A stretch of DNA of 63,188 bases, filler included, from Collodictyon triciliatum (taxonomy: Eukaryota), in assembly GCA_043381765.1 (NCBI GenBank). It is 11 parts of 11 records of this genome, joined end to end, with 100 filler letters (N's around TTAATTAATTAA, not from the genome) between each part and the next. Parts side by side here need not be neighbours in the genome. Positions count along the whole stretch, not along the records: positions 24,371 to 30,500 come from JBHJMP010004687.1; 10 more parts are not named here. One strand, written 5' to 3'. Made by a program: the position numbers and the translations under genes. The notes beneath the pieces were generated by a model, which searched no databases, was not told the DNA's origin, and worked only from the letters and a program-made list of their open reading frames with translations. Shown piece by piece: positions 12,901-30,739 of this stretch. The first letter of the stretch is position 1. Each line of letters starts with the position of its first letter.

Positions 12901-13533
12901 AAAAGAACGAATATGCCCGACGCAAACACGCCTGCCTGTCATAAAATCGCTATTTCGGTGCATGATGAAATATTCCTAAATCTTGTTTTTGTGCTCAGTT
13001 CCCTTTTTTTAAGATGGTTTTTTTAAGATGGTTTTTTTAAGAACAAATATTTTAATCACTGATTGCTCTTTAAACGTGCTGATGGAAAGTGAGATTCTCA
13101 AACAAGGGGTTTGCCGTTTTTCTGGGGTCGTGAATTTCGTCGTCAAAATGAAGACTGATTGTTATACTTTCTAAAAATTTGAACCATAACATGAACAGAC
13201 ACGTTTAGCCAAGGATAATATTTCGTGTGGGTATCAACATAATTCTAACTTAATGAAATAATTGTAAAAAAAATAAAAATAACATTCTCATTTCTTCTCT
13301 AAATTATCAAGTTTGCTTCAAATCTCGCAACATTCAATAATTGTGAAGCGGTTGATAGAAGAGGAATTAGAACTAAGAGATCACTTTTATGCGAGAACAT
13401 CTATTGAAGATATGTGAAACTCAATTATAACTCGTTCTTTATCCACAAGATGAGAGATCTTCTAATGTTTACAATATGAACAAGAAACATCTGTGAAATA
13501 GGATTGTTGCACAATGAAATTTTTGCATATGAA

Positions 13534-13585
13534 CTCCATGATATTATATTTATCTAATTATATAGATAAATATAGTATCACTCCA
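13534..13585. mobile_element. 42-bp TG...CA hairpin flanked by a 5-bp direct repeat (possible collapsed transposon or footprint)
   Basis: The sequence is CTCCA [TGATATTATATTTATCTA attata TAGATAAATATAGTATCA] CTCCA. The arms are 17/18 complementary. Confidence 0.45.
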
Positions 13586-14165
13586 ACTATAATATACTTT
13601 TATTTTAATTTTTTTTTTTAGTTTACTTTGGCTGCCCTAACAAATATCTCAGAAAAATATAACAAAGAAGGGTGTTTTTCAATTTAGCGCAGTGATTCGC
13701 AATAAGCCTTTCGTTTTTGCTTCGTTCTGTTGTGTCTTTTCGCTTCCGCGCGCCCATCTTTTGACAGACCGGCCCAATGATGACAATTCTGGAAAACAAT
13801 GATTTTACTCCACAAACACCACAGTTTATAAGCAGCCGAATGCGCCTTTGTCAGATCCAACCACAGAAACCAACGATCTGACTTTTTTTCACAGCCCCCT
13901 TTCGCCTCTACTGCTTAAAAGCTTCAGATTCTCAGCCTTCCAACAAAACAACAAAGCAACAAAACAACAAAACACAACAATAAAACACAACAGCAATAAT
14001 AACAAACTGTAGAAACAAGAATGAACAGATACGTGAGAAAACCAAAGCCCTTAATGCCCGACACATCCCCAGCTCACTAAAGCGACACCAGAGCCACTCA
14101 ACACACCATCCCAACAGGACTACCTCAAGAGCCAGAAAGAGAGTCAGAAAGAAAGAAAGAAAAAG

Positions 14166-14554
14166 ATGCTTTTCCGGTCACTCTTCAGAACACTGCTTCC
14201 CAAAACCCCGCTGCACCAGCAGACAACCTTCGCATCGGCGTTCTCCACCAGAGGCTCGGGCCTTTCTTCCGGAAACGGACACATCGACTATGAAAAGCAT
14301 CTGACTCAGCTGGGCTCAAAGGTCTCTGCGCCGTCCAACCCAGAAAACGCTGCGCTGGAAACCTGCCCGAATCCATATCTCTCAGACCCATATGTCATCC
14401 GCTTCACCTGCCCCGAATTCACCAGCCTTTGTCCCATCACGTCGCAACCGGTGCGGTTCCAGTTTTCTGAACGAAGCACAATCTATACTCTTTCCTACTC
14501 TGATATCTTCTCTTTCGTCGTCTTTCAGGCCTTTTTTTTTTCTTTCACCTCCCT

Positions 14555-14616
<62 letters not shown>

Positions 14617-15196
14617 TTGTTGTTTGCTCAAGTATGGCATTGCTGCTGCTTAGGACTTTGCGCACATTGTGATTGACTATGTACCCCGCAAACTGATTGT
14701 GGAGAGCAAGTCCCTCAAGTTGTACATGCAGTCCTTCCGCAATCATGGCTCGTTCCACGAGGCGTGCACTGTTTCGATCGGAAAGAAGCTTGTGGACCTG
14801 CTTGACCCTCACTTCCTTCGCATCGGCGGGTAAGAACGACCTTTTTTTTTCATTTGTACCCACATGTTTCTTCATTTCTTCATATCTTCATTTATTTATT
14901 TCCTTCTAATTCAGACACCAATCCAACATTTTTCTACTTATCTACTCATTCAATCGAACGATTTCTTTCTTTTCTCTGGTTCCATCGCGATGAATACCGA
15001 ATGTTCTAATTGGAGCAATTTCCTACTCGTTTGTCGTTGTTTTATCTTTATATATATATATATATATTCTATTTCGAATAGGTATTGGTACCCAAGAGGA
15101 GGAATCCCCATCGATGTGTTTTATCAAGCCGGCGAAGTGCCGAAAGGTGTTTGGCTCCCCGACCAAGGTGTGCCTGGATACAGAGGCCGCGGATGA
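14166..15196 (+). CDS. queF: NADPH-dependent 7-cyano-7-deazaguanine (preQ0) reductase QueF, type I, with an N-terminal mitochondrial-like presequence; 3 exons, 191 aa
   Basis: Exons 14166-14450, 14654-14829 and 15082-15196 are joined by GT-AG introns with matching phase. Motifs: [24 protein letters not shown], the QueF signature [23 protein letters not shown], and [18 protein letters not shown]. Confidence 0.95.
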
Positions 15197-18571: not shown

Positions 18572-18713
18572 TCCCCCTCTCCCTCCCCCCCCCCCCCTTC
18601 CTCTTCTTCTCCCNNNNNNNNNNNNNNNNNNNNNNNNNNNNNNNNNNNNNNNNNNNNTTAATTAATTAANNNNNNNNNNNNNNNNNNNNNNNNNNNNNNN
18701 NNNNNNNNNNNNN

Positions 18714-24098: not shown

Positions 24099-24199
24099 TC
24101 TGTTAGTTTGAAGATCGCTGTCTGGCGACCTTACGGAAAATGCCTTGTTTTATACACGACTGTTTTTGTTGTTTTTGTTTTTTTGTTTTTTTGTTTTTT

Positions 24200-24270
<71 letters not shown>

Positions 24271-24370
24271 NNNNNNNNNNNNNNNNNNNNNNNNNNNNNN
24301 NNNNNNNNNNNNNNTTAATTAATTAANNNNNNNNNNNNNNNNNNNNNNNNNNNNNNNNNNNNNNNNNNNN

Positions 24371-24550
24371 GTATGTATGTATGTATGTATGTATGTATGT
24401 ATGTATGTATGTATGTATGTATGTATGTATGTATGTATGTATGTATGTATGTATGTATGTATGTATGTATGTATGTATGTATGTATGTATGTATGTATTT
24501 ATGTATTTATGTATTTATGTATTTATGTATTTATGTATTTATGTATTATG
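24371..24550. repeat. (GTAT)n microsatellite at the contig start, inside an intron of the fusion gene
   Basis: Read directly. The same gene also has intronic (CAA)n at about 25238-25323 and (TAT)n at about 27273-27425. Confidence 0.95.
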
Positions 24551-24602
24551 TATTAAGTAAATTACATGCCTTTGATAGCGATTTTTTTATAAAAAAAAAA
24601 AG

Positions 24603-25234
24603 GAATTGACATTGCACCGATACTTTGGGGATGTGATGGACGATAGTCTCTTTTCCCTGGCAGAACCGTTAGAATCCGGCCAGACAAGCAGATTCTGCTC
24701 GAAAATGGCAGAGATTAATGGCGTTCACATTGTGGGATCTTTATTTGAGGTATCACGGAAATAATTTTTCCAGAATGCAGCAGAGTGGATTTTTTTTTTT
24801 TTGCTGTTGAATTATTCTTTTGTTGTAGTTATATGATTCATTTTATCTAATTTGTGCTATTTCATATCACGAAATTGAATGTCAAATGATATGTGTGAGA
24901 AATATTTAAATTTTCGTCTTAAAAAAGCAGGCATAATCCAGTGCAAGAATATAGATCAAAAAAATATTTAGATTATACGATTTCCCTCCCATAACTCATA
25001 TATAGGATGCCACGCATTTGAAGCCCAATCTACGCTTTAACACAGCTGTGATTTATGGTCCCGATGGGAAAATGGTTGGGTACACCCGTAAACAGCACAT
25101 CCCAAGAGGAACAGGTTATGAGGAAGAGTTCTACTTCCAACCTGGAGACTCTGATTATCCCGTACATGACCTTGGCTTTTTGAGAATAGGCATTCCAACG
25201 TGCTACGACCAGGTGATTTGTTTGCCGACACAAT

Positions 25235-25323
<89 letters not shown>

Positions 25324-27272
25324 CGAAACCCCAGTTACTCATTACATACCATTTATCCAAATCGGCTTATTGATTATGTTCATACACTTTTAATCACCAG
25401 AATCATAATAATAATTTTAAAATAAAAACGCCTTAATATAGTGGTTTCCCGAACTGGCACGAATCTACGCTATGAAAGGGGCCGAAGTACTTCTTTATCC
25501 TACAGCAATCGGGAGTGAACCTAATTATCCCGGCCTGAATACTCAACCCATGTGGCAGAATATGATGGTTTCTCATGCGATTGCAAATGGTGCATTTCAA
25601 AAATACTGTTTTTACTCCATTTTGATGACAAGAGTTACAATCATGGATTTCGCCCTCCATTGATGGATACTGCTCATGTTTTATGTTACTCAGCATTCTC
25701 CATATAAATTAAACAGGTCTCTTTGTCGGAGCAGTCAATAGGGTTGGAAAAGAAACCCTTATTGATTTTTATGGTTCCTCATTTGTATGTGAGCCTACAG
25801 GCAGGATAATTGCCCAGGTTTCGCATGGCCCATATATATTTTATGCTCATATCACAGTAAGAGCAGCAAATATTGCAAATACTATATTACTAGACATGAG
25901 TGTAATAACCTTTAGGCAGCACCTAACAAGTCCGAAGTGATTGTGGCTACCTTAGACTTCTCTGTCCAACGATTCTGGAGGGACTTGTTCCCATTAATCA
26001 ACCAAAGGAAACCTCATACTTATCAGGATTTAACACGAGTTTCATGTAATTTATTATTTAGGTGGTATTTTAAGACCTCACGCTATATCTCCTTGGTCAA
26101 AATCCGACAATAATAGTTTATTACTATATTTTATGTCTCCGGTAGTTAATTTTTAATTTTTTTTGTTTCTTTTTCTCAGTTGAAGGTCTACCTAAGGTGA
26201 AAGCTATTCTACTTGTTGCTGGACAAGGAACAAGGCTACGACCCTTAACTGATGAATGTCCAAAGTGCATGGTCCAGTATCAAGTGCGTTTAGGGCATCC
26301 AAGCCACGATTACTTCGACTCTGATATCAAATAATTACTGTTTTTATTTTCCTTTTGATATGACGAAACAAAATGAAAAGAAAAAAAAAGAGGCAGATGT
26401 AATGATTTGTGAGTGTTCTTAAGGGGAGAATGATAATCAACACAGAAGATGCTTCAGTAACATTAATATTATCTCCTTCATCTTCCTTAACTAATTCTTA
26501 TTTTCCCCTAATGTTTCCTTTTTTTTTTTCCCTCCCATTAATTATATAGACACGCCCTATTGTCGATTACATTCTTTCATCTTTAAGGCAGAACAATATT
26601 CATGATATCGTGATGATAAAAGGGTATTTCATTTTGGTTTACTATATTTATTGTGCGAGTTTTTTTTTTTTGTTTGCTATTTTCTGCTTACTTCAACTGA
26701 GAATCATTAGCCAAAGCCTCAAGAATTAAACTTCATTGATGAAATCACTATCTTATTTGATGAAAGCTATCGAGAAGATGTCCTCCACAGAGACGGAGTG
26801 AGGGAGAGAATCAACCCTCGGTATGCATTAACAAATATGGTTGGTACTCTTTTCTCTGCTGAAGAAGAGTTAATAACGACAAAGGTTGGGTTTTATTTAT
26901 ACTGACATGAAATTTCGAGAGGTGCTATTTCACTCCACTCGATCCATATGATTTTTGATTGAGAGTCTTTTAGCATAAACCGCGACGTTTACTCTCCACC
27001 CTCAAAACAGGATGTCGTTATGTCCTACGGAGACATTGTTTACCACCCAAGTATTGTAAAGAAACTGCTTGAATCGGATGCTGATGTGGCTGTGGTGGTT
27101 GATTTGAAATGGAGAGAGCTATGGGAAGGGCGAATGGAAGACCCGTTGCTCGATGCCGAGACCATGAAATTAAACGGGAACCGCATCATCGAACTAGGGA
27201 AAAAGCCAAAGTCATTCGAAGACATACAGGTATATCCATCATTTCGAAGCATATTATATATTATGAAAAGTA

Positions 27273-27367
<95 letters not shown>

Positions 27368-27815
27368 TATTATTACTATTATTATTACTATTATTATTAC
27401 TATTATTATTATTACTATTATTATTGCTATTTTATTAAATCTTTTGAAACAGGCCCATGAAATCTTAAATTATACACGCCTATCTTATCTCCTATCGCAT
27501 AATATCTGGTTAAATGAAAAACACCATTGCTCTTTAAAATCTAATCTTCCGCACATAAAATTCCAGGGTCAGTACATCGGGCTAGTTAAGTTCTCATCCA
27601 GGATTCTTCCCAAAATCCGTGCGTACTACCACTCTCTGGACCGCCACAAAACGTATGACGGGAAATCTTTCGACTTGATGTACATGACCTCGTTTCTGCA
27701 AAGTATTGCAGACAACCTCACCGACTTGACCGCCGTCTTTATCGAAGGAGGTTGGACAGAAGTGGACTCGGTCCAGGACCTTGAGTACAAAGTCGATGTC
27801 TCCTGGTTTAAATAA
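24603..27815 (+). CDS. Fusion of a nitrilase/C-N hydrolase (N-carbamoylputrescine amidase-like) domain and a Cj1416/LicC-like NTP (cytidylyl) transferase domain; at least 10 exons, 5' truncated
   Basis: Exons 24603-24749, 25006-25212, 25442-25589, 25717-25817, 25916-26045, 26180-26283, 26550-26623, 26767-26884, 27011-27229 and 27567-27815, all GT-AG and phase-compatible. Nitrilase triad: E(LTLHRYF), K(QHIP), C(YDQ|WFPE). Transferase motifs: KAILLVAGQGTRLRPLT..PKCMV, SYGDIVY, QYIGLVKFS, WTEVDSVQDL. Confidence 0.85.
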
Positions 27816-28232
27816 ACCAATTTTCTGATGCGAACTGCGCAATACCCCACCACAACACATGCGTCTAGTTTTTGTTTCTTTCTTCCCATGAGGATGTTCT
27901 CGATATGTTTGATGACCTGCTTTTATTCGCATTTCCTCTACACAGATTGCATCCAGTGTTTCACAGTAGGAAAAATAACAATATGGATTTTCATAGTTAC
28001 CGTCATAGATATCTAAATGATAGAGAACGTGTTCGCGAAGTGGCGATGATGGCGAACACAAGAGGATATTCCGATTGGCTGAATTCACGAACATAAAAAG
28101 TGATACCAGGAAAAGCAAAGTGCACAAAGCAAGCGCAGCGCCCTCTTTCTGCGCGTTTGGGGCGATTATGAGATAACCAAGCGTGTATTCCATAACAAAA
28201 AAAAGTGCCATTGGGTGGCAAAGCAATGCCAT
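27594..28232 (-). CDS. Possible membrane-protein exon or ORF, antisense-overlapping the end of the fusion gene
   Basis: 212-aa ORF with two hydrophobic segments at its start. No recognisable family; its last 74 codons are antisense to a real exon. Confidence 0.25.
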   Translation of the reverse strand: MALLCHPMALFFVMEYTLGYLIIAPNAQKEGAALALCTLLFLVSLFMFVNSANRNILLCSPSSPLREHVLYHLDIYDGNYENPYCYFSYCETLDAICVEEMRIKAGHQTYREHPHGKKETKTRRMCCGGVLRSSHQKIGLFKPGDIDFVLKVLDRVHFCPTSFDKDGGQVGEVVCNTLQKRGHVHQVERFPVIRFVAVQRVVVRTDFGKNPG

Positions 28233-28866
28233 ATATAAGCATCCGGTATCATCGGGAGGATAGCAGCGTCTGATGTTGCACCCATGAGTGCGTTTGCATT
28301 TTCTTCAGAGTTTTTTCCGCTTTTTTTTTTTAAAAGAAAAGAAATAAACTTGCAAAAAATATTGTTTTTAATAGTTAATAAGGAATAATAAAAACCATCA
28401 AACTTGATGCTAAGGGACCCTCGTCACCTGCGGCGATCTGTTATCGCATTGTTCTTTAGTTAATCGTAAGGGTTTTGATGCTAGGAGAATTATATGAAAA
28501 CTTCAGGCGCTTTTTATATTTCTCCTCTCGATATATGCAAGTTTGCAAGGGTTTGGCTTTGGTTTGCTGGCTTTCATTTATGTAACCGTGGCTGAAACCC
28601 TCTTTATTTTACTTTTTATTTCTTTTTATTAATCAATCGTTTTTTTCTGTTCATTCACTAGTTTTTTTGCACTAGTTTTTTGTGAAAGGTATATGAAATC
28701 CCTTTTGTTGTTTTTACACTGGGTCTCTAAAAGCTTAACTATCTACAACTATCACCATAAAGTTTTAGATATCAATGTTAACGACTTTTAAAATAATAGA
28801 GAAGTCACAGAAAGTATCTGGAAGGACGCGACTGTAATTACTAATTAGTTTGTATTAGGATAAAGG

Positions 28867-30311
28867 ATGTTTGTTGTCGTTGCTTTTGGGTTCGTTGCAT
28901 TAGGACTTTTCCTATGGTATTCTCTGCGTATGGGGAAGAGGCATAGAAAGACAACAGCTGATACACAATATCTGTTTAAAAGGTACTTACTCTTGCCAAA
29001 AAAAAAAAAATTATCAATCAAACACCTCCACTAATTCTTTTCTCCAGTTCTCTCTTACTGATATTTATATACTTATATTTCAAAATAGGCGTCCGATGAA
29101 CTCTCCATATATCCCCGCATTCGCTGTTGCTCGAGCAAAGGTAGACCAATAGAATCAAATAAAAGTGTAATTATGCCCACCCCCTCACCTTTGAAACTAC
29201 GTGAATAATCAGAATGTAAAGAATTATGAAAACTGCTGAAATAAAAGCGTTATCATTTTGAAGAAGTATCAAAAGAGTATTTATCTGTTTAATTTATGAT
29301 GCACAATTACCCACTTATCATCGAAGGGTCGACGGCCGACCATGGAAGATAATCATTCCATCGAAATCGCAGTGGACATAGGCGTTCCTGGTTTTCATGA
29401 AGTGTCTTTCGCAAGTGTCTTTGATGGCCATGCTGGCGAAGTACGAGTGCACTGAACACCATGACTTAAAAAAGAATGTTCACCTTTGGATGACATCATA
29501 TAGATAATGGAATCAATTCAGTTGTATCTCCCCTTTCCGATTTGTTTTTCATTGTCATGAATTATTTCGTTAATCGTGCATGATTATACCCCTTACATAG
29601 GAAGCATCGAAGTATGCGCAAGAAAATCTGCACCGAAACATAATAGCTGCATTTCAAAAACAACATTCACTTAAGGAATGCGTCGATGTTGAAAAAGCCA
29701 TCAAAGCCGGCTTTGCAAAGACCGATTCAGATTTTCTTGACTTTGCTCGACAGGCACAGTATGAATATTCCATATTTGCCTATTTCTTTTCTTTATTTTT
29801 CTTCTATGAATTTTCATATTTTTACAACATTTAACACTTAATACACATGACAGTAATATTTCCTCCTTTTTATTTATTCTCATGTCACATGAATCTAACA
29901 TGGGATACCATACAAATAGAATGATAGAAGAATTGAGAACCTATTCAAATAATCCAATTATCGACAAACTATTTCAGGATATCTAGCGGGTCGACATGTG
30001 TGTCTGCATTCATCACGCATAACAGACTTATCGTGGCAAACATAGGCGATTCGCGCTCCATCCTCTGCCTCGACCGAATGAGAGCACACACCCCTGGCGG
30101 TCATTCCCTCTCAGAAACAAACATCCCGTTTGTCGAAATGTCCATCGACCACAAGCCGAACCGGCCCGATGAGCAGGCCCGTATCGAACGTGACGGCGGA
30201 TTGGTCGTCCATTTCGGGTGTTGGCGTGTTCAAGGTGTGCTAGCCACAAGCCGCTCGTTCGGGGACAAAGACTTGAAGAAGTTTGTCATATCAGAGCCGG
30301 AGTTGATTGAG
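28867..30311 (+). CDS. PP2C/PPM-family Ser/Thr phosphatase with an N-terminal membrane anchor (PPM1L-like), 3' truncated
   Basis: Starts MFVVVAFGFVALGLFLWYSL. Spliced motifs are K|GRRPTMED, VFDGHAG, SGSTC, VANIGDSR, SIDHKP and RVQGVLATSRSFGD. Confidence 0.88.
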
Positions 30312-30739
30312 GTTAACTTTAAATTATATATGAGTGACTTTCTGATTCTCATGACAAATGATAATCATTCACGTGATGCTTTCTTCTTCTTTTTCCTTTC
30401 TTTTCTTCTTTTCTTCTTTTCTTCTTTTCTTCTTTTCTTCTTTTCTTCTTTTCTTCTTTTCTTCTTTTCTTCTTTTCTTCTTTTCTTCTTTTCTTCTTTT
30501 NNNNNNNNNNNNNNNNNNNNNNNNNNNNNNNNNNNNNNNNNNNNTTAATTAATTAANNNNNNNNNNNNNNNNNNNNNNNNNNNNNNNNNNNNNNNNNNNN
30601 AAAAAGAGAGAAAAAAAAAAGAGAAAAAAAAAGAGAGAAAAAAAAAAAGAGAGAAAAAAAAAAAGAGAGATAAAAAAAAGGGAGATAAAAAAAAAGATGA
30701 AAAGGAGAGCCCAAAGCTAATAAGTCTACACTCACCCAA

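Follow-up and report, generated by a model that had tools for sequence, protein, structure and literature searches.

We analysed a 63,188-nucleotide (nt) stretch of DNA from the eukaryote Collodictyon triciliatum (assembly GCA_043381765.1; hereafter the window). On the piece at positions 24371-30500 (JBHJMP010004687.1), it carries a gene in which a CN hydrolase (amidase) domain is joined in frame to a cytidylyltransferase domain. Using three-frame translation and splice-site inspection, we placed ten exons (A to J) on the plus strand of this AT-rich piece (approximately 34% G+C), spanning 24603-27815 (Table 1). The nine introns are 98-337 nt long, each bounded by GT..AG, and the spliced exons form a single open frame of 1497 nt (498 codons) whose sole stop is the terminal TAA. 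Exon A is the first exon on the piece, and approximately 43 codons 5′ of it are missing: residues 1-43 of a 540-amino acid homologue (P0001), from a transcriptome labelled Diphylleia rotans, had no match anywhere across the window by tblastn. Since this complete homologous open reading frame (ORF) starts only 43 residues ahead of exon A, the further upstream domains envisaged in an initial annotation of the locus are unlikely.

Table 1. Exons of the fusion gene and the intron at the fusion junction (positions in the window)
Feature	Position	Strand	Evidence
Exon A, CN hydrolase	24603-24749	+	Acceptor AG at 24601-02; tblastn with P0001 residues 44-92, 69% identity
Exon B, CN hydrolase core	25006-25212	+	PF00795, 41.4 bits; 86% identity to P0001 residues 93-161
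Exon C, CN hydrolase	25442-25589	+	PF00795, 26.9 bits; TAIGSEP, with Glu187 equivalent at 25517-19
Exon D, CN hydrolase	25717-25817	+	PF00795, 23.5 bits; C/D joint in X1 and X20 contigs
Exon E, CN hydrolase C-terminal tail	25916-26045	+	Phase 1 end at fusion junction; joined to F in contigs
Intron 5, junction intron (134 nt)	26046-26179	+	GTAATT...TCTCAG
Exon F, linker FEGLPKV and cytidylyltransferase start LVAGQGTRLRP	26180-26283	+	PF00483, 25.3 bits
Exon G, cytidylyltransferase	26550-26623	+	80% identity to P0001 residues 323-347; F/G joint in X2, G/H joint in X1 and X2
Exon H, cytidylyltransferase	26767-26884	+	P0001 tblastn; contigs of complementary DNA (cDNA)
Exon I, cytidylyltransferase	27011-27229	+	P0001 tblastn; H/I joint in X1, X2, and X8
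Exon J, cytidylyltransferase end	27567-27815	+	Stop TAA at 27813-15; 80% identity to P0001 residues 456-538

Exons B, C, and D each exceed the Pfam gathering score for PF00795 (23.2 bits), and exon F exceeds that for NTP_transferase. The Glu-Lys-Cys triad of the CN hydrolase is intact, as had been annotated. The catalytic Glu, within ELTLHRYFGD, is the first codon of exon A (24603-05), and exon B encodes the Lys (25090-92), a second Glu (25123-25), and the nucleophilic Cys (25201-03). These four residues fall in the columns of Glu48, Lys121, Glu132, and Cys158 of the Medicago N-carbamoylputrescine amidohydrolase (MtCPA, PDB 5H8I).

Splicing across the fusion junction and a second carrier

The two domains meet at the E/F junction. 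Exon E ends ...TCA T, the donor GT lies at 26046-47, and exon F resumes directly after the acceptor. The join is in phase 1, with exon F completing a Phe codon, and the product reads ...DLTRVS-F-EGLPKVKAILLVAGQGTRLRPLT. If intron 5 is read unspliced, the frame reaches a TAA at 26111. The frame of exon F lacks an ATG all the way from the upstream stop to its GxGxRL nucleotide-binding motif. The splice sites, their phase, the read-through stop, and the lack of a start codon all agree with the initial annotation.

We placed assembled contigs of four public runs on positions 25380-27230. Two runs (X1 and X2) belong to one study, and the others (X8 and X20) are metatranscriptome runs of two further studies; runs X3-X7 and X9-X19, with only small shares of the stretch, were left out. 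The E/F joint was taken from the coordinates in the contig records; rows at the 26146-26177 repeat are absent from the joint table. In X1 record 4 (252 nt), 132 letters ending at 26045 are followed directly by 104 letters from 26180, while X2 record 6 (725 nt) joins exons E-F-G-H-I (25924-26045, 26180-26283, 26550-26622, 26766-26882, and 27009-27230). For the C/D joint, the sides were 65 letters (X1) and 47 letters (X20), and for the H/I joint in X8, 36 letters. The D/E joint was weak, with a single X1 contig and 27 letters on its shorter side, under the 31-letter rule of the tool used. Loose ends at 25440 in X1 and X20 consist of letters of the end of exon B. Since five introns are absent from them, the contigs represent cDNA. 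The amidase-cytidylyltransferase message is spliced in frame, and the RNA check that had been proposed for the 26045/26180 junction came out as predicted, with cDNA contigs from both runs of one study joining the two sides more firmly than chance would allow. At 26582 in exon G, the X1 and X2 contigs carry A where the window has T; as the change is synonymous (Ser), another strain or allele is its probable source.

The fusion gene is real and expressed, its kind is very rare, and a second organism expresses a gene of the same architecture. P0001 is a Trinity ORF in EukProt ("ORF type: complete") with the same two-domain layout (PF00795, 172.7 bits, residues 7-266; PF12804 and PF00483, residues 295-417). 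Its residues 44-538 align in order to all ten exons by tblastn, and over 492 residues its identity with the window protein is 76.6%. We recovered it by searching with exon J among longer proteins, where there were 66 matches and only P0001 also contained PF00795. In a collection of 5.8 billion clusters, both domains occurred in P0001 only among the best 120 of 2806 matches to this protein. In an exhaustive HMMER scan of 1.84 billion representative proteins, the best 150 matches each covered one half only (top score 334 bits), and a Pfam scan of the 18 of these that are longer than one domain needs revealed none pairing PF00795 with the transferase. Searching the ESM Atlas with P0001 gave no usable match. 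An apparent third CN hydrolase fusion (P0318, seeming to match residues 259-537 of the query) was discarded, since pairwise alignment revealed similarity in the transferase only; this protein is a transferase-kinase fragment.

The cytidylyltransferase half and the phosphoramidate pathway

In Campylobacter jejuni, Cj1415-Cj1418 are described as converting glutamine, adenosine triphosphate, and cytidine triphosphate (CTP) to cytidine diphosphate (CDP)-phosphoramidate 3′-phosphate (PMC11800397). As outlined in a preprint, a glutamine kinase places a phosphate on the amide nitrogen, the transferase produces CDP-L-glutamine, and a hydrolase yields glutamate and cytidine diphosphoramidate, such that an amide hydrolase is required after the transferase (bioRxiv 10.1101/2024.11.05.622173). 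According to a 2019 review, decoration of sugars with O-methyl phosphoramidate had been identified only in Campylobacter (PMC6429109). Our full-text literature search, which covered mostly open papers, returned no account of this fusion or of a eukaryote with the pathway; in the papers covered, only Campylobacter is described as having the route, apart from archaeal Borg elements, for which it is predicted.

The assignment of the C-terminal domain as a Cj1416-type CTP:phosphoglutamine cytidylyltransferase (COG1213; PF12804-PF00483), made in the initial annotation, is well supported by its sequence and by the context of its relatives. The window protein has the NTP_transferase fold with the N-terminal GxGxRL motif and retains 49 of 49 invariant columns in an alignment of 24 family members. 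The equivalent domain of P0001 lies well inside a bacterial family and shares 53% identity with P0002, a Spirochaetaceae protein, and exon J is 58-68% identical to bacterial members. Several family members are named L-glutamine-phosphate cytidylyltransferase by the Joint Genome Institute. Likeness to Cj1416 was set through this named family and its gene cassettes; the PDB search returned no solved structure for the C. jejuni protein. The window transferase differs in being eukaryotic, with four introns within the domain, and in its fusion to a CN hydrolase; its substrate is predicted. We are highly confident of both the fusion itself and the transferase family assignment.

We surveyed the neighbourhoods of the transferase family in 80 metagenome loci. 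A Cj1417-like class I glutamine amidotransferase (GATase) adjoins the transferase in 62 and a Cj1418-like kinase is present in 59, the usual order being kinase-GATase-transferase. Twelve of the 18 loci lacking a GATase match have less than 1.1 kb upstream, three (L129, L135, and L152) have the kinase abutting the transferase, and three (L142, L157, and L158) have other contexts. L135 (1876-10250) and L129 (176-4574) are bacterial phosphoramidate-type cassettes with no GATase nearby, where the hydrolase step may also be filled by something else. Both cassettes also hold an APS-kinase-like gene, methyltransferases, and sulfotransferases, and L129 contains a 360-amino acid ORF with no Pfam match.

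In a maximum likelihood tree of 67 transferase domains, the window protein and P0001 pair with support of 100/100. This pair is sister (99/90) to a clade containing P0066, the GATase fusions P0017, P0064, and P0065, a transferase-kinase fragment (P0033), and P0190. In total, ten proteins carry a GATase N-terminal to this transferase, many with a kinase C-terminal (P0017, P0064, P0065, P0310, P0321, P0322, P0385, P0426, P0406, and P0423). P0310, a GATase-transferase-PPDK_N protein, is the top transferase match among the 1.84 billion representatives (58% identity). In P0017, the kinase part matches NCBIfam NF004508 with 862 bits, while the match of the GATase part to NF045546 (gamma-glutamyl-CDP-amidate hydrolase), at 118 bits, is under the 250-bit cut-off. 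The window protein resembles these fusions in its transferase clade, in the order of hydrolase then transferase, and in its short linker. It differs in that the hydrolase is a CN hydrolase rather than a GATase, and the kinase, fused in many of them, is separate in Diphylleia. The separate kinase (P0193), a complete ORF of 852 amino acids, comes from the Diphylleia rotans transcriptome that also contains P0001; this stand-alone Cj1418-like protein scores 852 bits on NF004508 (cut-off 501) and ranks 5 among 4428 matches to the kinase part of P0017. The only other known carrier of the fusion therefore also expresses a predicted first enzyme of the pathway.

Other fusions of the transferase involve glycosyltransferase, inositol monophosphatase, epimerase, and glutathione S-transferase (GST)-like domains. 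The last type is represented by P0190 (L142:4677-6131, plus strand), an intron-less 485-amino acid ORF in which a GST-like N-terminal domain (GST_C_3, 22.9 bits) precedes a Cj1416-type transferase sharing 80% identity with that of the triple fusion P0017. Since the contig also encodes Vps26, an EF-hand metacaspase, and a leucine-rich repeat protein, it looks eukaryotic, and P0190 would be a second unusual fusion of this transferase in eukaryotes.

The amidase half and the place of Cj1417

The best solved relative of the amidase half is MtCPA (E value 8e-50), and its best NCBIfam model is TIGR03381 (aguB), on which P0001 scores 242 bits, under the equivalog cut-off of 410.25. Legionella proteins encoded in a CN_hydrolase-SpeA-AguA operon also fall below this cut-off (226-229 bits). 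Since these operon proteins fail as well, the test is too strict for this branch and the low score is uninformative.

Using the roles assigned to catalytic and pocket residues of MtCPA (PMC4812014), we mapped the named residues onto 14 sequences, including the Legionella operon proteins and an AguA-fused protein (P0364). The only named pocket residue of the window protein that differs from MtCPA is Trp159, which is Tyr. Differences are concentrated at the mouth of the pocket, where both the fused proteins and those closest to them have Arg49 and Lys or Arg at position 126 (Asp126 in MtCPA) and lack Asp190, which is Tyr in the fused domain, while AguA-linked proteins have Pro at position 49 and Ser at position 126. 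This basic mouth would suit a substrate bearing a carboxylate or a phosphate. In the swapped C-terminal tail, Leu268 and Phe269 (P0001 numbering) would line the entrance to the pocket of the dimer mate. As these lie only approximately 16-25 residues ahead of the transferase domain, the transferase would be tethered close to an amidase active site.

We also examined 80 bacterial amidase loci with 10 kb of context. Agmatine deiminase (AguA) is encoded in 1 of the 23 loci of close relatives (at least 64% identity to P0067) versus 40 of the 57 others, and arginine decarboxylase (SpeA) in 0 of 23 versus 38 of 57. Of the proteins with Arg49, 23 of 24 have no AguA in the locus, and of those with Pro, Ala, or Thr at this position, 40 of 56 have it; these counts largely reflect one clade split rather than independent events. 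PF04371 (agmatine deiminase) was found in one of five Chloroflexota genomes with close amidase relatives, all of them metagenome-assembled genomes (MAGs) that may be incomplete. The initial annotation had raised N-carbamoylputrescine amidase activity, and with it a link to polyamine metabolism, as an alternative. The resemblance to that enzyme stands, and the link is weakened: since the basic-mouth subclade rarely adjoins agmatine deiminase, the substrate of the fused domain need not be N-carbamoylputrescine. In three of five loci examined (L002, L008, and L010, each at about 9900-15000), the closest Chloroflexota amidase genes share downstream neighbours encoding a metallo-beta-lactamase-fold protein, a fused phosphotransferase system IIC-IID protein, and a major facilitator superfamily transporter.

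A 40-sequence amidase tree did not place the fused proteins on long branches. They are weakly sister (81/94) to a stand-alone Clastostelium protein, and all three lie inside a clade (100/99) with Chloroflexota and heterolobosean proteins. Identities to the stand-alone eukaryotic relatives are 64% (Clastostelium) and 56% (Willaertia).

A model that would accommodate these data is that the nine-intron eukaryotic gene encodes one two-domain enzyme of the phosphoramidate pathway. Together with a separate Cj1418-type glutamine kinase, the transferase domain would convert L-glutamine phosphate and CTP to CDP-L-glutamine. The AguB-like CN hydrolase, through its Glu-Lys-Cys triad, would cleave the carboxamide C-N bond, presumably yielding L-glutamate and cytidine diphosphoramidate, an activated P-N donor. 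It occupies the N-terminal place taken by the Cj1417-like GATase in the ten related fusion proteins, and it would have displaced that class I GATase, which holds this position in the sister fusions. Support for the displacement is indirect: it comes from this position, from the sister placement in the transferase tree, and from the Cj1418-like kinase encoded in the Diphylleia transcriptome, along with the need of the pathway for a carboxamide hydrolase right after the transferase, the weak tie of the amidase subclade to agmatine deiminase, and the basic pocket mouth. Taken whole, including the replacement of the GATase, this explanation is plausible on the sequence evidence, with a chance that we put only just short of even.

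The likeness of the CN hydrolase to Cj1417 (class I GATase/Peptidase_C26; NF045546) would lie in its putative pathway slot and its N-terminal position. Both families use a Cys nucleophile and hydrolyse carboxamide C-N bonds, but their folds are unrelated. PF07722 and PF00117 gave no signal on any exon, and the GATase part of P0017 found nothing in the window by tblastn. The CN hydrolase domain may work like Cj1417; it is not a member of its family. Precedents for joining a nitrilase-superfamily domain to a nucleotide-handling enzyme are glutamine-dependent NAD+ synthetase, whose amidase domain supplies amide nitrogen to its partner domain, and Nit-Fhit, both of which were among our PDB matches. 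These proteins use other CN hydrolase branches and partner folds, and neither contains a COG1213 cytidylyltransferase. AguB and plant CPA (5H8I, TIGR03381), the best structural and profile matches, share the Glu-Lys-Cys triad with its second Glu, the hydrophobic channel, and Glu187. The fused proteins differ from them in the equivalog score, in the three residues at the pocket mouth, in belonging to a subclade rarely found beside agmatine deiminase, and in the fusion to a transferase.

Several observations weigh against replacement of Cj1417 by the CN hydrolase. Its catalytic tetrad and pocket residues Tyr54, Pro125, Tyr130, Trp162, Ala183, Ile184, and Glu187 are the same as in MtCPA, and they are also the same in P0001, the stand-alone eukaryotic and Chloroflexota relatives, the Legionella operon proteins, and P0364. 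Between the fused proteins and 22 stand-alone close relatives, there are approximately 9 shared differences in 169 conserved columns, all conservative. The GATase/C26 family handles gamma-glutamyl amides with large leaving groups. In contrast, MtCPA is described as having a narrow pocket that releases ammonia at the bottom (PMC4812014), and in a pocket of this AguB-like kind, a leaving group the size of CDP would be hard to place. Judged by its residues, the amidase domain looks like an unmodified family member, and stand-alone members occur in genomes lacking the transferase: in five Chloroflexota genomes, which encode the nearest stand-alone amidases (identity 62-67%), there was no true Cj1416 homologue, the best match covering residues 3-68 only (50 bits). 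A Cj1416/1417/1418-like gene was absent within 10 kb at all 80 amidase loci, and a CN hydrolase was absent from all 80 transferase loci (tblastn with two queries; clade hidden Markov model over 2937 ORFs). The search for the same gene pair in bacterial neighbourhoods, which the initial annotation had suggested, thus ended with 0 of 160 loci. Amidase relatives at 42-53% identity are linked to agmatine deiminase by operon or by fusion. The fusion, P0364 (678 amino acids, from an Acidimicrobiia MAG), joins agmatine deiminase (PF04371) to a CN hydrolase 42% identical to the P0001 domain, which connects this part of the family with N-carbamoylputrescine. Finally, since eukaryote-like P0190 carries a GST-like, non-hydrolase domain N-terminal to its transferase, the N-terminal partner is not always the pathway hydrolase.

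These observations would fit an alternative in which the fusion is real and the N-terminal domain keeps an amidase role on a small amide, releasing ammonia, while another protein hydrolyses CDP-glutamine. Its substrate would be N-carbamoylputrescine or a similar ureide or amide that bears an extra anionic group (e.g., citrulline-like), and the link to the transferase would be regulatory, structural (CN hydrolases oligomerise), or an accident of gene fusion. The closeness to MtCPA and aguB, the pocket residues common to all 14 sequences compared, including the specificity residue Glu187, the equally low scores of the Legionella operon proteins, the few fusion-specific substitutions with no long branch, and the stand-alone Clastostelium and Willaertia relatives all favour it. 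Against it, the domain belongs to a subclade in which agmatine deiminase and arginine decarboxylase are nearly or entirely missing from the loci, its pocket mouth has shifted from acidic or neutral to basic, and the literature searched shows no pathway linking polyamine synthesis with a Cj1416-type enzyme. Moreover, fusions that are conserved usually unite steps of a single pathway, and the phosphoramidate pathway needs an amide hydrolase at exactly this point. We regard the small-amide role as possible, with a minority chance well below even. It is unlikely that the transferase has instead drifted to another phospho-substrate, with the amidase unmasking an amine on a compound cytidylylated before or after, giving a different CDP head group. 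Such drift would be in keeping with the range of COG1213-type enzymes, which take phosphosugars, phosphocholine, and phosphoglutamine, with the reported promiscuity of Cj1416 with Mn2+ (PMC12275187), and with the variety of domains fused to this transferase; the basic amidase mouth would suit an anionic, phosphate-bearing substrate. However, all 49 family-invariant columns are kept, the transferase nests in a clade whose members carry GATase and kinase, and the one other carrier also expresses a Cj1418-type kinase.

A further possibility, that there is no fusion protein and the locus comprises two adjacent genes or a chimera made in assembly or cDNA synthesis, the amidase frame closing at the TAA of a retained intron 5, is very improbable. 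The E/F joint was found in two runs of one study only, the X2 contig that spans it begins 8 nt into exon E after adaptor-like loose letters (probably a template-switch oligonucleotide), and one low-depth X1 contig (depth 4.5) runs unspliced through intron 4. However, the two halves join in frame over a canonical GT..AG intron, exon F has no start codon before the nucleotide-binding motif, and an independent transcriptome from another species contains the same uninterrupted 540-amino acid ORF with a linker of similar length. Within intron 5, positions 26062-26123 have zero contig depth in all four runs, although contigs cannot prove that read-through transcripts are absent.

If the CN hydrolase does fill the Cj1417 step, the gene would be the first evidence of eukaryotes in which the glutamine-kinase/cytidylyltransferase route to P-N donors is present and expressed, and a case of non-homologous replacement of one Cys-amidase fold by another at a fixed position of a multi-domain enzyme. 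It would also draw attention to a subclade of proteins annotated as N-carbamoylputrescine amidases that are probably misnamed, since the agmatine deiminase partner is mostly absent from their loci. The fusion gene hints that some eukaryotes run the phosphoramidate pathway with a different hydrolase. Tentatively, and short of an even chance, free-living diphylleid-like protists may make cytidine diphosphoramidate with a nitrilase-superfamily amidase in the role usually played by a glutamine-amidotransferase-type hydrolase, which it would have displaced. In a bolder variant, the amide nitrogen would come not from glutamine but from some ureide or amide suited to the AguB-like pocket, where Arg49 and Lys/Arg126 would hold its anionic end. 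If the amidase instead acts on a small amide, the gene would still be a rare expressed fusion with halves from different sources and a marker of gene transfer and fusion in poorly sampled protists.

Repeats, spacers, and a neighbouring gene

The window is a chain of approximately eleven pieces separated by spacers of the form N44-TTAATTAATTAA-N44 (e.g., 6136-6235, 12371-12470, 18614-18713, 24271-24370, and 30501-30600). Because the pieces are joined by spacers, adjacent ones need not be neighbours in the genome. The piece with the fusion gene starts with a (GTAT)n microsatellite (24372-24540) and closes with a (TTCTTTTTCTTCAGT-like)n repeat (about 30400-30500), and the preceding piece closes with a poly-T run (24180-24270). 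The assembly seems to break at long simple repeats, which would explain the missing 5′ exon. Simple repeats also occur within the gene, with (CAA)n in intron 2 (25235-25325) and (ATT)n in intron 9 (about 27275-27420). Downstream on the same piece and strand, an intron-split gene at 29300-30330 encodes a PP2C protein phosphatase (PF00481, 103.9 bits for one exon), which is a common type of eukaryotic gene and shows no evident connection with the fusion.

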